A DNA stretch of 64,000 nucleotides. Source: Epithemia pelagica. Taxonomy: Eukaryota > Protista > Bacillariophyta. The stretch is from assembly GCA_946965045.2 (NCBI GenBank), contig OX337228.1, positions 992,001 through 1,056,000 on the forward strand, read 5' to 3'. The notes under the pieces were generated by a model that was not told where the DNA came from, did not search any database, and worked only from the letters and a program-made list of their open reading frames with translations. Position numbers and translations under genes: made by a program. This document shows, piece by piece, positions 54,251 through 64,000 of this stretch (its first letter is position 1; every line of letters begins with the position of its first letter).

Positions 54251-54927
54251 TAGTTGAGAGGCAGGACTTCTGGTTCATCCGCTCTTGAAGTCCTTGGTCA
54301 GTGGTTTACAAGAGAGGAGTTTTAATAATATCAATGGGCATTGAAAAGCCTTCAATTTTGCCTGAGGGCGGAAGCACAAAATCATGGGGTCATGGTTTGC
54401 AATTGTCTAGAATGAAACGCATTGTAGATGTGTTTGTGTCGACCTTGGACGTTTTTTTCTATAGTACCACATGTTCTTTCTTACTAGATACTACTACTCT
54501 TTGACAGCAGTCAGCATGATGATGATGAATGTACGCCTCGGATCCATTTCATTGTGAGGAAAAAGAGAACATGGGATCTGTTCTGGAGCTGGACGACGAC
54601 AAGATTCCGATACAGATGTGCTTGCGACAACAAAACCAGCCACAAGAATGCGCCATGGATCCAATCAAAGCAACGGACGGAGGATCGAGATTGTGTGCCT
54701 CGATCCTAGTAGTGTGGTTGCTGGAATAATCATTGTCTCGTATTCTCCAAATGCACTCTACTTCTTCTTCCTCTTGGTTGTCGTCGTCTTGAGCGACAGG
54801 GGATGATGAGAGTAGAACAAGTTGTTCCACGGGCTTTTGTGCGACGTAGCTGCGATTGGAGAGTCACACACTAACACATTTTCTTCTCCAGTGGCGGCCA
54901 TGCTCACGCGTTCGGGTCCTCGTCGTC
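54251..54927. repeat. Copy 2 of the diverged direct repeat, including the D-LDH 3' UTR and last codons
   Basis: See copy 1. Confidence 0.88.
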
Positions 54928-56961
54928 GTCCTCGTCGTTATGGAGAAAAATTTTGCCGGGATTCATGAGATTGGAGGGATCCAAGGCTTGTTTGACCAGT
55001 TTCATGGTATGGAGTGTGTCGGCCGAATATTGTTGTTGCAAATAATGTCGTTTACTGATCCCAATGCCATGTTCTCCCGTACAAGTTCCTCCCGCGGCCA
55101 AGGTCCGTTGAATCAACCTGGTTTGAATCCGCTGCAACTTTTGCCAATACTCGTGGGCCTCGGGATTGTTTTTCCCAAGGTATTGGTCGGGAACGGCCAA
55201 GATGCAATGAAAATTGCCATCGCCGGCATGTCCAAAACAGGGTCCCAAAACGCCGTCTTCCTGGGCCACGTCGTGCGCCGTGGCCACCAAGACGTTGGCC
55301 AATTGGGACAGGGGGACACAGGCATCGGTGACCACGGCTTGGGCATTGGCACCTCCTCCCGCAGCAATGGCATTGTAATACAAACTATGTCGAGCCTTCC
55401 ACAATTCGTGACGATCCTGAACATCGTAGGCCAATTCAAAGACCTGACGACGAGAACTAGAAGAAGATGCCGTGTCGCCGTCGTCGTCGTCCGTAGGTTC
55501 CTGTACCAAAAGATCTCGCACTAATTCCACTTGTTCGTGTAAGGCGGCTTCTGTCACGGCCGCCAATTCCAAAAACAAGGCGGGTTGTTGTGCGGCACTG
55601 GTCGTCGTTGTACTGGTTAGTTCACCCGTGGCCTTGTTGTTGTCGTCCTTGTCGTCATGAGGAGGATGACTAGCTTGTTGTTGTCGCGAGTGTTCAAAGA
55701 CTTGCATGGCGGTGGCATCCAAGAGTTCACATCGGACCAAATCGACACTGCATTGCAACAGCAACGAGACGGCTTGGGCGGCTTGGTGGAGGGTGGGAAA
55801 GGTACAAAAGACGGCCACCAAGTGGGCCGGTACCGGATGCAATTTCACCGTCAATTGTGTAATAATTCCCAAGGTTCCTTCACTGCCAATCAACAGGGAC
55901 GTCAAGTCGTAGCCCGCGGCATTTTTCAACGCCTTGCTCCCCGTTTCAATCACCAGGGGAAGACGATGGTCGTCGTCGTCCTGGTTGGGAGGAATGTTGC
56001 CGTCTGGTTTGTTGTTCTTGTGGTTGTTGCGAGTGGAAGAGGATGCTGTTCCATTCGAATACTGTGCCAAGACGGCTGTGACACTCAGGACATTGTCCTT
56101 CATGGTTCCCCACTTGACCGTGGTGGTCCCCGAAGCACCCGTGGCGGCCATGCCTCCCAGCGTAGCATCGGCTCCTGGATCGACCGAAAACAAGTAACCA
56201 CTGGATTTCAAGGCGGCTTGCAATTGCAAGCGTGTGACACCGGCATCGACCACGGCATACGCATCACTGTCGTCAGCATGGGGATTGGGAAGAACATGAA
56301 TGGTCGTCATGTACTTGGCCACATCAATCGAGAGGGTATCCGGTTGAACGGCAGCCACATGACCTTCCAAGGACGTGCCGGCTCCAAAGGGAATCATGGC
56401 AATGTCATGTTGAAGACAATAGTGCACAACCTGTTGCACCTCGTGGGTCGATCGACAATACACAATCAAGGATGGTGGTTGACTGACATGATGCGATTCG
56501 CCTCGTCCATGACGATGCAATTCGTACCGATTGGTCGAAAATTCCAGGTCAGGAAAGTGTCGTGGCATGTCGACAAGAGCCTCTCGACGACGACGACGAG
56601 AAGAAGATGATGATGATTCGTCCATGGCGGTTGTTGCGGTGGTGGTCGGAGGCACTTCCTTTGTATTAGGAGAGGAGGCAAAGCTTCGTCTTATTAATCT
56701 TCTTGGAGAGTCTTGTTGTTGTTGCTGTTGTTTTTGTGAGAATGGATGATTCCTTCTGGGACCATTAGAATAGGAATAATGGTGGAATCCCCCAACCACC
56801 ACTGTTGGGAACGGGCAACGACAACCTATCGTTGTCATCGTCCTTGTTGTTGTTCCTGTGGAGCGCTTCTGCTGTACTACCAGCATCCGGCCGCCAGGAC
56901 CCATTCGTCGTGCTGATAGTGTTGCAAAGTGCTGGGCCATGCTTCTGCTGAAGCTCTTCAT
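54904..56961 (-). CDS. LDHD: FAD-linked D-lactate dehydrogenase (cytochrome), probably mitochondrial
   Basis: PFGAGTSLEGH, DPGADATLGGMAATGASG, GSEGTLGII, GHAGDGNFH, GTCTGEHGIG and MNPGKI motifs. Arg/Ser-rich presequence from ATG 56961. Confidence 0.9.
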   Translation of the reverse strand: MKSFSRSMAQHFATLSARRMGPGGRMLVVQQKRSTGTTTRTMTTIGCRCPFPTVVVGGFHHYSYSNGPRRNHPFSQKQQQQQQDSPRRLIRRSFASSPNTKEVPPTTTATTAMDESSSSSSRRRRREALVDMPRHFPDLEFSTNRYELHRHGRGESHHVSQPPSLIVYCRSTHEVQQVVHYCLQHDIAMIPFGAGTSLEGHVAAVQPDTLSIDVAKYMTTIHVLPNPHADDSDAYAVVDAGVTRLQLQAALKSSGYLFSVDPGADATLGGMAATGASGTTTVKWGTMKDNVLSVTAVLAQYSNGTASSSTRNNHKNNKPDGNIPPNQDDDDHRLPLVIETGSKALKNAAGYDLTSLLIGSEGTLGIITQLTVKLHPVPAHLVAVFCTFPTLHQAAQAVSLLLQCSVDLVRCELLDATAMQVFEHSRQQQASHPPHDDKDDNNKATGELTSTTTTSAAQQPALFLELAAVTEAALHEQVELVRDLLVQEPTDDDDGDTASSSSSRRQVFELAYDVQDRHELWKARHSLYYNAIAAGGGANAQAVVTDACVPLSQLANVLVATAHDVAQEDGVLGPCFGHAGDGNFHCILAVPDQYLGKNNPEAHEYWQKLQRIQTRLIQRTLAAGGTCTGEHGIGISKRHYLQQQYSADTLHTMKLVKQALDPSNLMNPGKIFLHNDEDDDEDPNA

Positions 56962-56994
56962 GATGATGATGATGATCCTTCTATGGATCCACCT

Positions 56995-57229
56995 TGCGAG
57001 TAGTGGAAAAGAACGGCGGTCTCTTTCCCATTGAGCAATCCGTAAAAGGATACTTGTTCTGATAATCACTATTATGTTAGGCCTAAATTCTCACTAAACT
57101 CACTACGATCTTTTCTTCAATATCTTGGATGAGTCATTCCATCCATTCGTTCACATCTACGTCGCTCATCATTCGTGATTGATGAGTCTTGTTGCCGAGT
57201 ATAAGCTTGCTACCCCAGCTATCCTCGCA
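56995..57229 (-). repeat. 3' LTR (235 bp)
   Basis: TG...CA with 6-bp terminal inverted repeat TGCGAG/CTCGCA. Identical to 63896-64000 over the 105 bp visible. Confidence 0.95.
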
Positions 57230-57240
57230 CTCCCTCTCAA
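57230..57240 (-). other. Polypurine tract
   Basis: TTGAGAGGGAG immediately precedes the 3' LTR on the element strand. Confidence 0.85.
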
Positions 57241-57254
57241 GCGCAATATCTCGG

Positions 57255-59241
57255 CTACCATCCACACAGTAGCTTCCGAATTGTTTCAAATGTATCTTTC
57301 GTCAGACCCTTTGTCATTATGTCTGCCCGTTGTTTCGATGTCTCGATCTTTTCAACCGTGACTCGATTCGGCTTTAAGTGCGATCGAAACCAGTGCATTC
57401 GAATCGCATAGAACTTTGATCTTGGTGTGAACCTGCCCGGCTCCATGTTCGCGAGCGTCAGGGCACCATTGTTATCTTCCCACACTGTGGTCTTGAATTT
57501 CGTGCTCTGCTCTTCTGTCATGCCGACACCTCGTGCCACAGTTTTCAGAAGTTCCAGAAGAGGCAACACAGATTTCATCGCCACACTGAGCGCTGTGTAT
57601 TCCGCCTCCATTGTTGATGTTGCAATATCCGATTGCAACTTGCTTTGCCAAATGACTGGACAGTTTGCGATGCAGATGGCAAACCCAGTTCGGCTCTTGA
57701 CACATGACGGATCCATCTTATCCTCATGTGGCCACAGACCCGCAAAGTCTGCATCAACGTAACAATCAACGTTGAGATTGTCGTAAGTTGGACGGAGGAT
57801 GAGTCCTTTCTCCATTGTCCCTTTCAAGTATTGTCTGATCCTTTCTAACGCTTCTTCGTGTGTTGTCTTAGGATCATGGGTGTATCGTGCACATTGACTG
57901 ACGGCATATGTGATGTCGGGTCTTGAATGTGCTTGCAAGTATTGCAGCATTCCAATGACACTTGGATAGCTGAATTTGCACTGTGCTGGAGTCCCATTTT
58001 TGTTTGCCACCAGAGGATCCTTCGATGCTGGTGTCCGTTTCATGGGTTTGTCTCCAATGTGAAGTGCCTCCACAATTCGCTTGATCAGGCCCTTCTGCGT
58101 CAACGTGATAGTACCATCACTTTCGTTGCGTTCAATGTGTACGCCGAGAAATCCGGCTACACTGTCTTCGATCTCGAGTGTCACGTTCTGTTGATTCTGG
58201 AGTTTCCCAAGAAACTCATCAATCCACTCGCGTTTGGGGCTGTAAATCAATGTGTCGTCCACATAGACCAGCACGATTATTTTGTCGGACATGAACAGAC
58301 ACGGGTCAATGTGTTCCTGCGACTTGAGTCCGACTTGTTTCAAGACTTTCCCTGGTTGTGCAAACCCTCTCGGCATCTCAACATACACGCCACTTTTCTT
58401 TTGTTCTTCTTCTGTCATCTTGTCCCAATTGGGATCCTTGTCAATCGGCGCATGTACAAATGCTGCCGTGAAATCAACTTGTACCGTGGACAGATTCAAA
58501 ATGATGGAAAGAATCATCATCAGGCGCACAGTCGTCCAATTCACAACGGGTGCAAACGTGTCGAAGAAATCGACTCCTTCGACTTGTTTGTCCCCCCGTG
58601 CACAAAACCGTGCTTTCAATTTGCGTACGGATCCATCGGGATACCGTTTGCACTTGAACGCCCACGTGCCAGGTAAGACATTCATCCATGTCTCTCTTGC
58701 CACGACTTCCCATGCTTTCATCTTCTCATGAAGCGTGTTGTATTCTTTCTTGCAAGCCTCCCAGTACCCGTCTTTGTCGGGACCGTTCATGGCTTGTTCC
58801 CATGAGGGATTGTCTGCAGCATCGGCCTTGGTTGCCAATGCCATAGGATGCATCTCTTCAATCCAGCGTGTGTCCGGATCTGTATGACGATCCAGCCACA
58901 GGTCCATGGCCAATAGGTCTTTGGATTTGGACGCGATTGCGCTGGTCAGAGTGTCCCAGGTAAGGGATTGGAGGAACTGTGCATTCAACAGCTTTCGTCT
59001 CACCTTTTGCCTTGGCCTTGTTGACCCACGAGGAAAGTAAGCAGTCGATGCCCACAATCGCTCATCGAACAAGTGACGATTGGGACGACGTTCTCTTTTG
59101 CCCCTTCCATGTGATTCTGGATCGGGTTCGGCAAAGTGCCTATTACGGCGTTCAATCTCTTCTTGTCTTGTCGTGCTGTCATCGTCTGAGTCGTCTTCAA
59201 AAACGATCTCATGTTCTTCCTCGTCGGCTTCTCCCTCTGGA
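57255..59241 (-). pseudogene. pol: pol 3' part: reverse transcriptase plus RNase H (in-frame RT deletion; out of frame with PR-IN)
   Basis: WAFKCKR, KARFCARG, VDFTAAF, YVDD, YVDADFAG, EAEY, EDNNG and ADIMTKGL are present. The copia SLYGL(K/R)Q block is missing (KVLK-QVGLK). Confidence 0.9.
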
Positions 59242-62050
59242 CTCCCTCTGGAGGCAACAATTCACCATTTGGAGCTCCCTCTGGAGGTAACAATCCACCT
59301 GTTGGATCTTGGCCTGTTGGATCTTGGCTTGGCAATTCACCGGGTTCTGGAGGCGGTTCTGGTCCTTGCCCTCGCTCTGTTGGCTGTTCCAGTGGAGGTT
59401 GGAATCGAACATGGTTCCTTGCAGCTCGGCCATGGTTCCTTGCAGCTCGGCCTCTCCCCCCGTCAACAGACGTTGGAACAGGAACAATGGGTAAAGGTGG
59501 AGTGGGCAATGGACAAGGAGGACGTGGCTGACGTTGGGCATGCCGTTCCGCAATCTCGGAATCGGTCATCCACTCGTCGCCAAGCTCCAAATTACCATCA
59601 TCATCGTCTTCGTCAGGCAGGTTAGATTCAGTGCCCGCCGCCAGCAGGCGTTGCCAAAAATCACCGTTCAAATTTGGCTCATCTAAGAGCCCGCCAGAAT
59701 CGGCATTAGGGACCGTAGAGAATAAATCATCGTAGACCACATGATACTGTGAGCTGATGAATCCCGAGCGAAGATTGAGTATACGACCAGCAGTAGTAGA
59801 ATGGTCGGGCGAAATCCCAAGAAACTGACCACGTCGTGCCTTGGCTTGCCATTTAGGCAACTTCTTTCCGTCTTGAAGTTTGGGGTCCAGGACGTATACA
59901 GGACATCCCCATACGTGACTCCGCTGAAGGTGGTGAAAATCGGAGAATGTGATGCCAGAGAAGATTTCGAGTGGAGCGATGTTCGTCCGGCGATTCGGAA
60001 GGTGGTTCCAGAGCCAGACGGCGTGCTCAACAGCAAAGGGCCAAAGATGCAAATGCATTTGCTCGGGCCAGTGAATGGTCGCGTGTAGTAACATAGTACG
60101 GGCCCAAGACATCGTGGTCTTTACTGCCCTTTCCGCGACTCCATTCTGGTGATGTGCCCCAACACCTGAGAAGCTGATACGTTGACCACATCCGTGTACA
60201 TGGTTCAGAAATTCTTCTCGGCCAAACGGCGCATTATCGGCGCGGTACTCTCGTATCTTGACACCGTATTCATCCGCGAACCGCTCAAACTTCTTCTTTG
60301 AACTGATCGTCTCACCAACTCGAAGGGACACTTGGTTCGCCAAGAAGATCATGCCAGAGGCATGGTCGACAAACAGAGTTCCCCCTCTATACTGTTCTTC
60401 GGTCCTCTCTTTTCGATACGTGTGAGGAAGGCGTCCACGAATCGTTGATTCGTATTGATCAATCGAAACACAATCTCCTGGTTGAAGGTGCTCCCTCTTG
60501 AGCATACTGTCTTTCCCATCCACCAATCCACCGTGATTCGAATGAGGCGTCCGACGATGTTGCTTCCCGAGCATACAAGCTGCGCACAAAGGTATGACGC
60601 AACTTGTTGTCTTCGCTTCTTTTGTCTCCAGCACTAACCGTCGACTGTTTGCTTTTGGATCTCGACAGAGCGTCTGAATCCATTGCATGTTGGCATGGCC
60701 AAGCTTCCAGTGCCACAGCAAGAGCTCCCTTTGCGATGCCGTCAAGTTCTGGTTAGTCTCGTCGGCCACATTCATCAAGCCACTGTGATTTGCCGTGGAC
60801 AAGGCCGACTTGACGGAATAGCCATCACCCAGCATCGTTGCATCTTCGAAGGTAAGTCCCATTTGATTCACATTCCCTGTGAGCATAAAGGGAAGATTAC
60901 TACCGGAGTTATATGGAAATTCTAACCATGTCCCATCCGGGATTTGCAACTGCGTTTTCTTGTGGTCGAGTACCAGTTTTCCAGCTTGCTGTTCTTCGAA
61001 GAATGTTTGCGGGCTGAACAAACGAATCGAGGCTTCTGGTACGTAGTATGCTTTCGTCTTGATCGTTCGAGCTACTCCCATAACATCTCTAACCATCCAT
61101 TGGACCGTGCCAAAACCTCGGACTGCTGTTGTTCCAGACAATCCATTCAACGATGAGATTTCGGCCGGTTGAATTGGTCCGACGAAGTCTTGGAGATTTG
61201 GCGTCAACGATTTGGACGCTCCGGAATCGATCACAATGGGAAGCACGTCTTGTTCTCGTTGACTCATGTACACCGTCATGCGACGGGACAATTCGCCAAT
61301 AGTCTCACTATTCAAACCAGAACAATCAACCTGATTTAACGGGACAGTGACGGCTTGAAAACTTTTCAGTTGTCCAAAATTGGCTGCTGCAACCATGCTT
61401 TGTCGCAACATCAGTTTCCAAGGGGTCTTTCGTCTTGTAAGGTCAGCACCAAGCCACGCCCCATGACTCAACAATTTGATTGTCTGCCACTGACGAACTG
61501 GATCGACTTGTGGTAGCAAGGAATCGTCCTTCAGGGCCAAACTCCAAAGCGACAATCCACCAAAGAGTTGGTCTCGAAGAGTCTTCGTCGTGTCGTTTGT
61601 CGCTCCCTCTAGAGACGACGTTCTCGGTTTGGTCCAGTTGTCCCAGTCGTCCGTGTTGTACCAAAGACAAGGACGGTTGTTTCGCCAGATCACACGATGG
61701 ACTCGACGTCTTGCTTTCATTTTGAGGCCATAGGAGCGTACCGACTGTCTCAGACGAGGTTTCGGCGGTCTTGGTGGAGTGCTCACAGCACGAGCAGCTG
61801 TGGCTCCAGACTTGGAGTCTTGCTCGACCAAGCTCATGGCACAACAAAGGCCTGTGAACAAGGCGAGATACAGTAGGAATAACCACGGCAGATAAAGCCA
61901 AAATAGGTCCCCCATCCCCCTCATGAGCGCACAGTCGAGTAAGGATGAGAAGATAGAGGTCGCCCAGGTTTCCCTCCTGGGACCATAGCGATGATAGGGG
62001 CGGCCTACACCAGATGGACCGTCCAAAGACGCCACCCAGCGGCCACCCCA
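59242..62050 (-). CDS. pol: pol 5' part: spacer, aspartic protease, integrase
   Basis: IVIDSGAS protease; WHWKLGH...CAAC HHCC zinc finger; SIDQ / RADN / AER catalytic DDE. Confidence 0.92.
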
Positions 62051-63793
62051 TCAGGAGAAATGCTCCACGAGACTGCGGAGCGACTGGTCGACGGAGCGAG
62101 CCACGTTTGCGACTGCAGCATCGAACTCAGCGCGATTGACAGTAGAACCAGCCACAGTACCAGTCGCTCCGGTGAGCGTGCTGGTCGTGCTGGCGCCGTC
62201 GGCTCGCGCGGCATGAGCACTCGCGTCTTGGTTGGAAGAATGCGTCCGATCCGGAACCCAGCGATGCGTGCGATGGTTGTAGAACATATGTTTTCCATCA
62301 ATCACGCGTCGATTTCGCTCGTCCGACTTTGGAGGCGCCCACTTTCCGGATGCACCACCTGCTCCAGAATTTGAGGAACTCGTCCCATTGGCTGCCTTCT
62401 TAGAACCAAACTTGTCTTTGTTCGCAGCAATCTTCTGTTCGTTGCGGGGTTCCGTGCACTTCGGTGCTGTATGTCCCGGCTTTCCACAATTCCAACAAAT
62501 TGGTTGGGACTTGCCATTGCCCGAAGAGGCAGTATTGGCAGCTTTCTTGGCATCTTCTTGGGCATTGAACACGGAGTTCTTTCCCTTCGTTTTAGAACCG
62601 TGCCAGTCATTACTGCTGCATAATTCATTATACTTAGTTTCGGCTAAGCGAAGCAAAACATCAACTTCCAATCCACCAGTGTCATGAGGATCACCTTGAA
62701 GTTTACCAATGTCCCGTGCCATTGTGTAAGTTTGCTCGATATAGCGGAAATAGGAGTTAAATTTGCCAACGGATGAAGTTTGCATGACCTTTAGCACTTG
62801 CTGATTAAAACGCTCTGGAACTTTCTTGACCCATTTCAAGCGCTTGTGTGCACCACGGATTAAACTTACAACACGAAGAACATTTTCACCTTGAAACTCA
62901 TTGATCTTCAAATTCTTAACCAAGTCTTTCAAATGATCAATAGCGGCTTCCGAACTTGAAACCAGAATGTTCATCATAATGACAAAGAGCAGCAGACCCC
63001 CTTGTTGAATGGTAGGGTAAGTCTCAAACTGTTCGTAGCATTTTTCAAACAGACTTTGAGTCATGTTATTTTCCAGATGCTTGTAGGTTAGTACCAAATT
63101 CTCCCGGTACCAATCCTTCTTGGTCCAGCGGCGATACCATTCACAACTGGCTGCAACTTCATCGGGAGTAACTTCCTCATAATTTAAATATAGATCTACA
63201 GTACGAGACTCAATACTCCGGGATCCCTTCGACTTGGGGAACACAATCGTGAACACGTCATGCATATCGTAAACCATATGCGTGTCCTTGGTCTTGGAAA
63301 TCATGATGGCAGTGTTATAACACTCATCCAACTTCTTTTCATCGGTCAAACTCATACTCGTGAAAGTATATTTCGTTTGCGATGTCTTCACGGCTTCCTT
63401 GAAGAGATCTTGTTTCTTCTCCGAGGACATCTTCTCCCTGTTCTCTTTCCGATATAGAGGTCCTTGATCCGCGACACCATATCCCCTTGAACCTGGTTCC
63501 ACCAGCTCAACTGCCAGTCCCCCAACCATGAATTGGGTATCTGTATCTAACGGGTAGTCATCGCTCTTTGAACTCTTATCCGAATTGTTTTCATCGCTTT
63601 TTCTTCTTTGTCTTCTCTCATTAAGACCCTGAAGCGTTTTGTCGAGTGTTCGGAATCCAAAGTCGGACTCCCGATTGCCGGTTCCAGTCTGGTCTTCCGC
63701 TGAGGCGTCTTGATAGTCCTCATCGTCTCCCGTGTTAGCCGGTGCAGCACCTGAAGCGGGTGAAACATTTGCCGAGTCTTCTGCTCGCGCCAT
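62051..63793 (-). CDS. gag: gag polyprotein
   Basis: ATG 63793; CCHC knuckle CWNCGKPGHTAPKC; ends in TGA at 62053-62051. Confidence 0.92.
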   Translation of the reverse strand: MARAEDSANVSPASGAAPANTGDDEDYQDASAEDQTGTGNRESDFGFRTLDKTLQGLNERRQRRKSDENNSDKSSKSDDYPLDTDTQFMVGGLAVELVEPGSRGYGVADQGPLYRKENREKMSSEKKQDLFKEAVKTSQTKYTFTSMSLTDEKKLDECYNTAIMISKTKDTHMVYDMHDVFTIVFPKSKGSRSIESRTVDLYLNYEEVTPDEVAASCEWYRRWTKKDWYRENLVLTYKHLENNMTQSLFEKCYEQFETYPTIQQGGLLLFVIMMNILVSSSEAAIDHLKDLVKNLKINEFQGENVLRVVSLIRGAHKRLKWVKKVPERFNQQVLKVMQTSSVGKFNSYFRYIEQTYTMARDIGKLQGDPHDTGGLEVDVLLRLAETKYNELCSSNDWHGSKTKGKNSVFNAQEDAKKAANTASSGNGKSQPICWNCGKPGHTAPKCTEPRNEQKIAANKDKFGSKKAANGTSSSNSGAGGASGKWAPPKSDERNRRVIDGKHMFYNHRTHRWVPDRTHSSNQDASAHAARADGASTTSTLTGATGTVAGSTVNRAEFDAAVANVARSVDQSLRSLVEHFS

Positions 63794-63883
63794 TGTTCTC
63801 ACCTTCTCTCTGTCCTATCTTGCCAGAGCACTCACTTCCTTGACACCGTACGACCTTGGGAAACCTTCTACAGCGTAATACTT

Positions 63884-63895
63884 GGGCTCAGAACC
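63884..63895 (-). other. Primer-binding site, half-tRNA type
   Basis: GGTTCTGAGCCC directly abuts the 5' LTR. It is one mismatch from GGTTATGAGCCC, the complement of the tRNAi-Met anticodon stem-loop. Confidence 0.7.
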
Positions 63896-64000
63896 TGCGA
63901 GTAGTGGAAAAGAACGGCGGTCTCTTTCCCATTGAGCAATCCGTAAAAGGATACTTGTTCTGATAATCACTATTATGTTAGGCCTAAATTCTCACTAAAC
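63896..64000 (-). repeat. 5' LTR (partial)
   Basis: Identical to 56995-57099. Confidence 0.95.

Follow-up and report, generated by a model that had tools for sequence, protein, structure and literature searches.

The 64,000-nucleotide stretch of contig OX337228.1 analysed here (hereafter the window) carries on its minus strand a Ty1/copia long terminal repeat (LTR) retrotransposon of about 7 kb, and the junction between its gag and pol genes, the subject of this study, lies within the window. The pol domains follow the order protease, integrase, reverse transcriptase (RT) and RNase H, with an RT of the RVT_2 type, as in other Ty1/copia elements. Pfam searches returned Pol_BBD, gag_pre-integrs and SH3 followed by RVT_2 at E 1e-21, and RNase H was identified from the translation. 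In the frame downstream of the gag stop codon, matches to the protease, GAG-pre-integrase and SH3 were found, the first two of which score under the curated cut-offs. The TG...CA ends, the primer-binding site and the polypurine tract of Ty1/copia LTR elements are also present, the window holding just 105 nt of the 5′ LTR.

At the junction, gag and pol share one reading frame and are separated by a single UGA in the context UUC UCC UGA UGG GGU GGC (62059-62042, minus strand). The gag open reading frame (ORF) spans 63814..62051 (-), and after the UGA its frame continues open for 1016 codons (62050..59000), in agreement with the original prediction, made from the sequence alone, of one interrupting UGA followed by more than 1000 open codons. 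That prediction also drew a 62-nt hairpin at the stop. Folding from the U of the UGA gave the same pairing at −39.5 kcal/mol (z −4.0; 0/200 shuffles were equally stable), and the same hairpin formed when a 241-nt context was folded (z −2.5). We consider it likely, from the comparisons described below, that occasional readthrough of this UGA yields a Gag-spacer-Pol protein and that a hairpin about 6 nt downstream acts as the stimulator. The coordinates of all features are given in Table 1.

Table 1. Features of the retrotransposon in the window (positions are those of the window).
Feature	Position	Strand	Description or basis
5′ LTR, 3′ part	63896..64000	-	runs off the window; ends ...CTCGCA; its 105 nt are 100% identical to 56995-57099
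Primer-binding site	63884..63895	-	1 base off the form of the relatives; the window has C at position 5
gag, 580 aa	62054..63793	-	ATG at 63793, one CCHC knuckle; ORF, Pfam and homologues
In-frame UGA between gag and pol	62051..62053	-	putative readthrough codon; ORFs, sister copies and relatives
6-nt spacer UGGGGU	62045..62050	-	in the window copy able to pair with 62001-61992, burying the stop
Core hairpin 1 (+10..+52), conserved	62002..62044	-	GGNC lower stem, 3-nt 3′ bulge, variable upper stem
CCCCU tract directly 3′ of stem 1	61996..62000	-	candidate pseudoknot partner of the hairpin-2 loop
Hairpin 2, CCCAG-GAGGGAAAC-CUGGG	61963..61981	-	pattern scan of junction regions
In-frame spacer before protease, 266 codons	61253..62050	-	hydrophobic, then Arg/Lys-rich stretch; first in-frame AUG at 61924
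pol part 1, protease and integrase	59231..61252	-	ORF and Pfam; protease at codon 273 after the stop
pol part 2, RT-RNase H	57255..59240	-	other frame in the window copy, ends UAG; ORF and Pfam
Polypurine tract	57230..57238	-	
3′ LTR, ~235 nt	56995..57229	-	ends TGCGAG...CTCGCA

We compared the junction in three runs from two samples of one organism (X1-X3), using run contigs and protein clusters. At 62051-62053, no change was seen in the deepest contigs of X1-X3, and a diverged contig, about 20 times shallower and with 19 differences in 189 nt (~10%), retained the UGA. This contig showed 2 listed changes in 61995-62053, compared to 14 listed in the 97 nt upstream (62054-62150; p 0.03), and both of the former are structure-friendly, one turning U.G into C-G at +9 and the other the loop UUUG into UUCG. 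In addition, X4, a small-share run, contained one contig identical over 61955-62113, and X5, another small-share run, does not span the stop. At the protein level, Gags of 580 aa ending in EHFS made up 7 of the 15 listed members of a 39-member sister cluster, and most full-length Gag homologues, down to ~35% identity, end a few residues from the same C-terminal helix. The sense codon in sister copies that the original prediction had named as the sign of a simple nonsense mutation was absent from the deepest X1-X3 contigs and from the 10%-diverged copy. The host of the element is likely a diatom, since the named relatives come from the diatoms Epithemia (Gag 49%), Nitzschia and Cylindrotheca (pol 48-53%) and the best cluster of the neighbouring host gene is mostly Bacillariophyta.

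A metagenome scan yielded at least 79 loci with a protease relative, 45 of which also contain gag (locus counts are among the matches listed). The gag stop was in frame and the sole stop before the protease in 26 of these 45, openness of the spacer having been part of the criterion that selected them, and it was UGA in 26/26. Among the remaining loci, 5 have pol overlapping in the −1 frame, 1 is fused and 13 are broken downstream; five of these 13 still match the UGA-hairpin covariance model described below at E < 0.01, and two carry AGA instead of the UGA. Collapsing at 75% protease identity left 22 elements including the window, with a median protease identity of 45% among the 27 uncollapsed. 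The first stop after the protease was UGA in just 3/9 elements. No relatives were found in a Gag search of metagenomes or in alignment searches of viral contigs and of prokaryote genomes, and the absence of a fused Gag-Pol among longer proteins is weak evidence. A simple nonsense mutation was rejected, as the UGA is retained in sister copies and a single UGA recurs in 26/45 loci. UGA as a general sense codon was also rejected, as a host gene terminates in UGA and the 17,682 open codons after the stop contain 333 UGG. Judged from these comparisons, the UGA is part of the design of the element and not a lesion.

The letters that follow the UGA are conserved as well. At +4, 16 of the 22 elements have C, 5 have A and the window alone has U; G occurs at +10 in 16, G at +11 in 20 and C at +13 in 17. 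The spacer of the relatives mostly begins with CUN or AAU (CUN in 13/22, CUA in 5/22), while no conserved letters were found upstream of the stop in the 22 elements. In the window, an AUG overlapping the stop (UGAUG) opens a 202-codon ORF, as had been noted originally, and termination-reinitiation there could make an alternative protein, with the hairpin serving that process. UG at +4/+5 is found only in the window (1/22), the ORFs opened by nearby off-frame AUGs in the other 21 elements measure 4-49 codons, and such a protein would not yield Pol. Reinitiation at UGAUG was rejected as a family feature, being private to the window family, and we regard it as the least probable of the explanations considered here.

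Next to the stop codon, the relatives share a predicted structure (hairpin 1). The 70 nt from the stop had a mean fold z of −1.87 (12/22 below −2), compared to −0.72 to +0.36 in 8 flanking windows. The arm +10..+20 paired best with its own downstream region in 10/22 elements and ranked among the top three in 16/22, compared to 0-3 at control offsets, a comparison that involves no selection. The 16 elements that fold were aligned by sequence only, and in this selected alignment 77% of cells pair compared to 61% when shuffled, with 30 cells changed on both sides compared to 12.9 in shuffles (0/500). In the lower stem GG-N-C, the pair at N occurs as G-C, C-G and U-A. The compensatory changes in the stem that the original prediction had proposed to look for are thus present across related elements.

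A covariance model was built from the 16 elements and run on the window and 99/102 loci. Its sole window match was 61991-62053, and it matched 0/23 phage control loci, which are viral-contig loci with the hairpin-2 pattern described below that served solely as negative controls. Fifteen held-out loci matched at E < 0.01, all beginning with UGA, although only L024, L042 and L053 have no obvious close relative in the training set. Hairpin 1 starts at the nearly fixed position +9 to +11. On this evidence, the conserved signal is a UGA followed by about 6 nt and a predicted hairpin from +10, and not a stem-buried stop. The window shares the core +10..+52 and its 3′ bulge with the relatives; its stop is buried because the spacer UGGGGU can additionally pair with CCCCUAUCA 3′ of the stem. 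The embedding of the UGA in a hairpin, as first proposed, therefore holds for the window copy, to which stop-codon pairing is peculiar and in which the context UGA-U is atypical, and not for the relatives.

Near the junction, an Rfam search gave one chance-level match, and a search of 56900-64000 gave no match at E <= 1. This bears on a further explanation, that selenocysteine (Sec) is inserted at the UGA, aided by a hairpin that resembles a Sec redefinition element; such elements occur in some selenoprotein mRNAs. They are also touched on in PMC3159437. In favour of this explanation, the stop is invariably UGA and has a stem-loop about 6 nt downstream. No match to the Sec insertion sequence (SECIS) or to any other Rfam family was found in the 7.1-kb element at E <= 1, although a novel SECIS type would escape such a search. 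Moreover, the site is a Gag C-terminal linker and not a redox motif, and the existence of a −1 frameshift group and of one fused element suggests that the residue does not matter. We therefore consider selenocysteine very improbable.

A second hairpin was found further downstream. Hairpin 2, with the loop RAGGGANAY and covarying stems of 5-8 bp, was present in 8/38 junction regions, with one more imperfect, and in none of 98,680 nt of background. Its bearers share 35-65% protease identity, and at the protein level many Pol N-termini show it as a PGR(E/D)TQG-like peptide. A CCCU or CCUU tract follows stem 1 in 7/8 hairpin-2 bearers compared to 3/18 others (Fisher p 0.001; background 6.5% per 10 nt). 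The CCCU tract and the AGGG loop of hairpin 2 may form a pseudoknot of 4-5 bp, a candidate that we treat as a lead only because the test was defined after seeing the sequences and kinship was not corrected for.

In the group with pol in the −1 frame, gag ends differently. L084 (2550-2620), L085, L087 and L095 have G_GGA_AAA followed by 5 nt and a hairpin, and L088 (3605-3680) has G_AAU_UUU followed by 6 nt and a hairpin, the hairpins of this group having z scores of −4.1, −2.5 and −2.0. In this broad lineage, these slippery-like heptamers with their hairpins are candidates for −1 frameshift signals. A quick tree, poorly resolved and with long branches from degraded rows, placed L084 and L088 in one clade and gave no direction of change. 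The spacing bears on the possibility that the hairpins act in RNA stability, by shielding the stop from nonsense-mediated decay, or in packaging, with any readthrough coming from the codon context alone. For the stop itself this is compatible with the readthrough explanation. Hairpin 2 would suit such a role, having a purine-rich loop and lying 69-93 nt from the stop in only 8/38 junction regions. The nearly fixed start of hairpin 1 does not, and in the −1 group the hairpin lies 5-6 nt after the heptamer, the spacing expected of recoding stimulators. We consider a function restricted to stability or packaging rather unlikely.

The distances within the junction keep the reading frame, which speaks for ribosomes passing the stop. 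The length of hairpin 1 varies, and the partner of +11 keeps its codon phase in 20/26 pairing junctions (28 examined; p 7e-6). Hairpin 2 lies 69, 69, 72, 75, 78, 84, 87 or 93 nt from the stop, every one a multiple of 3. Such frame-keeping indels and the in-frame UGA would be unneeded if a minor splice removed the stop and joined gag to pol, and conservation of UGA-C and of GG at +10/11 is in keeping with a decoding context. Drosophila copia does set its gag/pol ratio by splicing (PMC2194720); for the present lineage we judge splicing highly unlikely.

Between the stop and the protease, the relatives have a spacer of 46-367 codons with a hydrophobic stretch followed by a basic R(H/Q)Y-x-L-x-x-R-like motif. 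Most close pairs show a third-position excess in the spacer, an R(H/Q)Y-x-L-like motif is found in 10/22 elements, and the hydrophobicity is moderately frame-specific (13/22 in frame compared to 8 and 2 off frame). The hydrophobic/basic spacer is present too in the fused element L089. An ESM Atlas search with the spacer gave no usable match, which indicates neither absence nor novelty. Across the elements, 968 stop-free codons precede the first AUG (33.5 expected off frame), a figure that carries little weight because it is partly a product of locus selection.

On this explanation, termination at the single in-frame UGA by the majority of ribosomes would produce Gag, and a minority would read through it and produce Gag-spacer-Pol, the efficiency of readthrough setting the Gag:Gag-Pol ratio. 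The UGA would be decoded by a near-cognate tRNA, for Trp, Cys or Arg. The hairpin about 6 nt 3′ of the stop would stimulate readthrough at the mRNA entry of the ribosome. In the window copy, UGA-UGGGGU stands in place of the usual UGA-C, and a ribosome holding the stop in its A site would have melted the stem extension over it. The candidate readthrough event put forward in the original prediction thus gains support from the conserved UGA and the covarying stem.

Several observations weigh against this explanation. Ten of the 22 elements fail z < −2, with L026, L028, L040, L044 and L064 at z >= 0, and the pairs with two-sided change and the further pair types were no better than in shuffles (313/500 and 73/500, respectively). 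The selection of the 26 loci for openness and of the 16 aligned elements for folding counts in the same direction. Two degraded, near-identical copies (L096:1389, L097:1723) carry AGA for UGA with the downstream context retained, and the window lacks the leaky +4 C. A further caution comes from Tca2 of Candida albicans, which has the same layout; 300 nt of its junction failed to drive readthrough in yeast and turned out to contain a weak promoter (PMC2194720). Finally, 19/22 elements possess an in-frame AUG before the protease, that of the window at 61924. Pol could start at such an AUG by reinitiation, internal entry or a weak internal promoter like that at the Tca2 junction, with the hairpins serving that process or packaging. 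The first in-frame AUG is scattered from codon 4 to 116 among the 22 elements and absent before the protease in three (L046, L064, L076), two of which have intact pol frames of > 1200 codons. In addition, an own start for Pol does not account for the invariant in-frame UGA, nor for frame being kept, mostly 5′ of the first AUG, in the length of the hairpin and the distance of hairpin 2, and we hold it to be improbable.

Beyond readthrough at the UGA, a broader picture can be drawn, which we offer tentatively and doubt as a whole. A large copia lineage of diatom type would carry a two-part recoding RNA outside Rfam, consisting of a bulged hairpin 6 nt after the UGA and an AGGG-loop/CCCU pseudoknot. 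In the window family, the GGGG 3′ of the stop might be the partner of the CCCC tract instead, forming a switch flipped by the arriving ribosome. The lineage would have swapped between readthrough and −1 frameshifting with the hairpin at the same distance, and in the product Gag and the protease would be joined by a hydrophobic segment, possibly one that binds membranes.

The window copy is probably young and non-autonomous, because its LTRs are identical over the visible 105 nt but its pol is broken. The frame change near 59231 results from 11 extra nt (59231-59241) that are absent from sister contigs, and the RT lacks 24 residues (near 58340) compared to the sister protein P0135. In 21 related loci, GGTTATGAGCCC follows directly after CA as the form of the primer-binding site, which presumably resembles the half-tRNA-iMet sites of Ty5/copia-type elements. 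No tRNA genes were found in the window. A host ORF resembling a FAD-linked D-lactate dehydrogenase lies at 54904-57090 (-), measured as a stop-to-stop frame. As the end of the 3′ LTR (56995) lies inside the 5′ end of this frame, the element appears to have inserted at or just upstream of the start of the gene.

In-frame gag-stop-pol arrangements are uncommon among LTR retrotransposons, and in Tca2, the one copia case tested, the signal is unexplained. A whole lineage with natural compensatory variants would make a readthrough-stimulating structure definable and testable in a transformable diatom and, if true, would offer a starting point for the study of programmed readthrough in stramenopiles. 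For annotation, such elements look broken and have their pol started at arbitrary AUGs by gene callers, although the stop belongs to the design. In the literature covered, which did not extend to the gag-pol survey of Gao et al. 2003 or to Repbase/GyDB, we found no report on readthrough in diatom retrotransposons. No report of programmed readthrough in stramenopiles was found either, and the recoding reviews do not contain the word 'diatom' in the portions covered. The CoDi elements of diatoms (PMC2806351) share the likely diatom host and relatives of the window element; their description does not use the word 'readthrough' in its main text, which describes neither the codon nor a structure, and ORF details may be in its Additional file 1.

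Readthrough of a stop between gag and pol is itself a known strategy (MuLV, Tca2, Tj1/Tosmo), whereas the RNA signal described here is apparently undescribed. In MuLV, a structure just 3′ of the gag UAG sets the Gag:Gag-Pol ratio, but this retrovirus has UAG-G, an 8-nt spacer and a compact pseudoknot (PMC2194720, PMC3159437). The type II signals of alphaviruses, tobraviruses and furoviruses combine UGA-CUA or UGA-CGG with a 3′ stem; between the stop and these stems lie 7-12 nt, and most of the stems enclose loops of >=100 nt (PMC3159437), whereas the window lineage has a compact stem after ~6 nt. The relatives partly agree with the type II codon context (+4 C in 16/22, CUA in 5/22). The UGA-UGG of the window and the UGA-AAU of relatives do not, and resemble the type II exceptions UGA-UGG in sorghum chlorotic spot virus and UGA-AUG in Drosophila (PMC3159437). 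Among Ty3/gypsy elements of fission yeasts, Tj1, Tosmo1-3 and Tcry1 likewise have an in-frame TGA between gag and pol, with a conserved CT after it; transposition of Tj1 reportedly requires the stop, and relatives use a −1 frameshift or one ORF (bioRxiv 10.1101/2022.12.06.519325). They differ from the window lineage in a conserved GAA before the stop, and no 3′ structure is described for them in the part of that source covered. The closest layout is that of Tca2 (pCal), also a Ty1/copia element, in which a UGA separates gag from pol in the same frame and is followed by a predicted structure (PMC2194720). The spacer of Tca2 is 8 nt long, purine-rich and followed by a predicted pseudoknot, as in the MuLV type of signal, whereas the 6-nt spacer of the window lineage is mostly pyrimidine or AU, usually CUN or AAU, and is followed by a simple hairpin. 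The window lineage is further set apart from Tca2 by compensatory changes across elements that are ~45% identical and by the hydrophobic/basic spacer of 46-367 codons before its protease.

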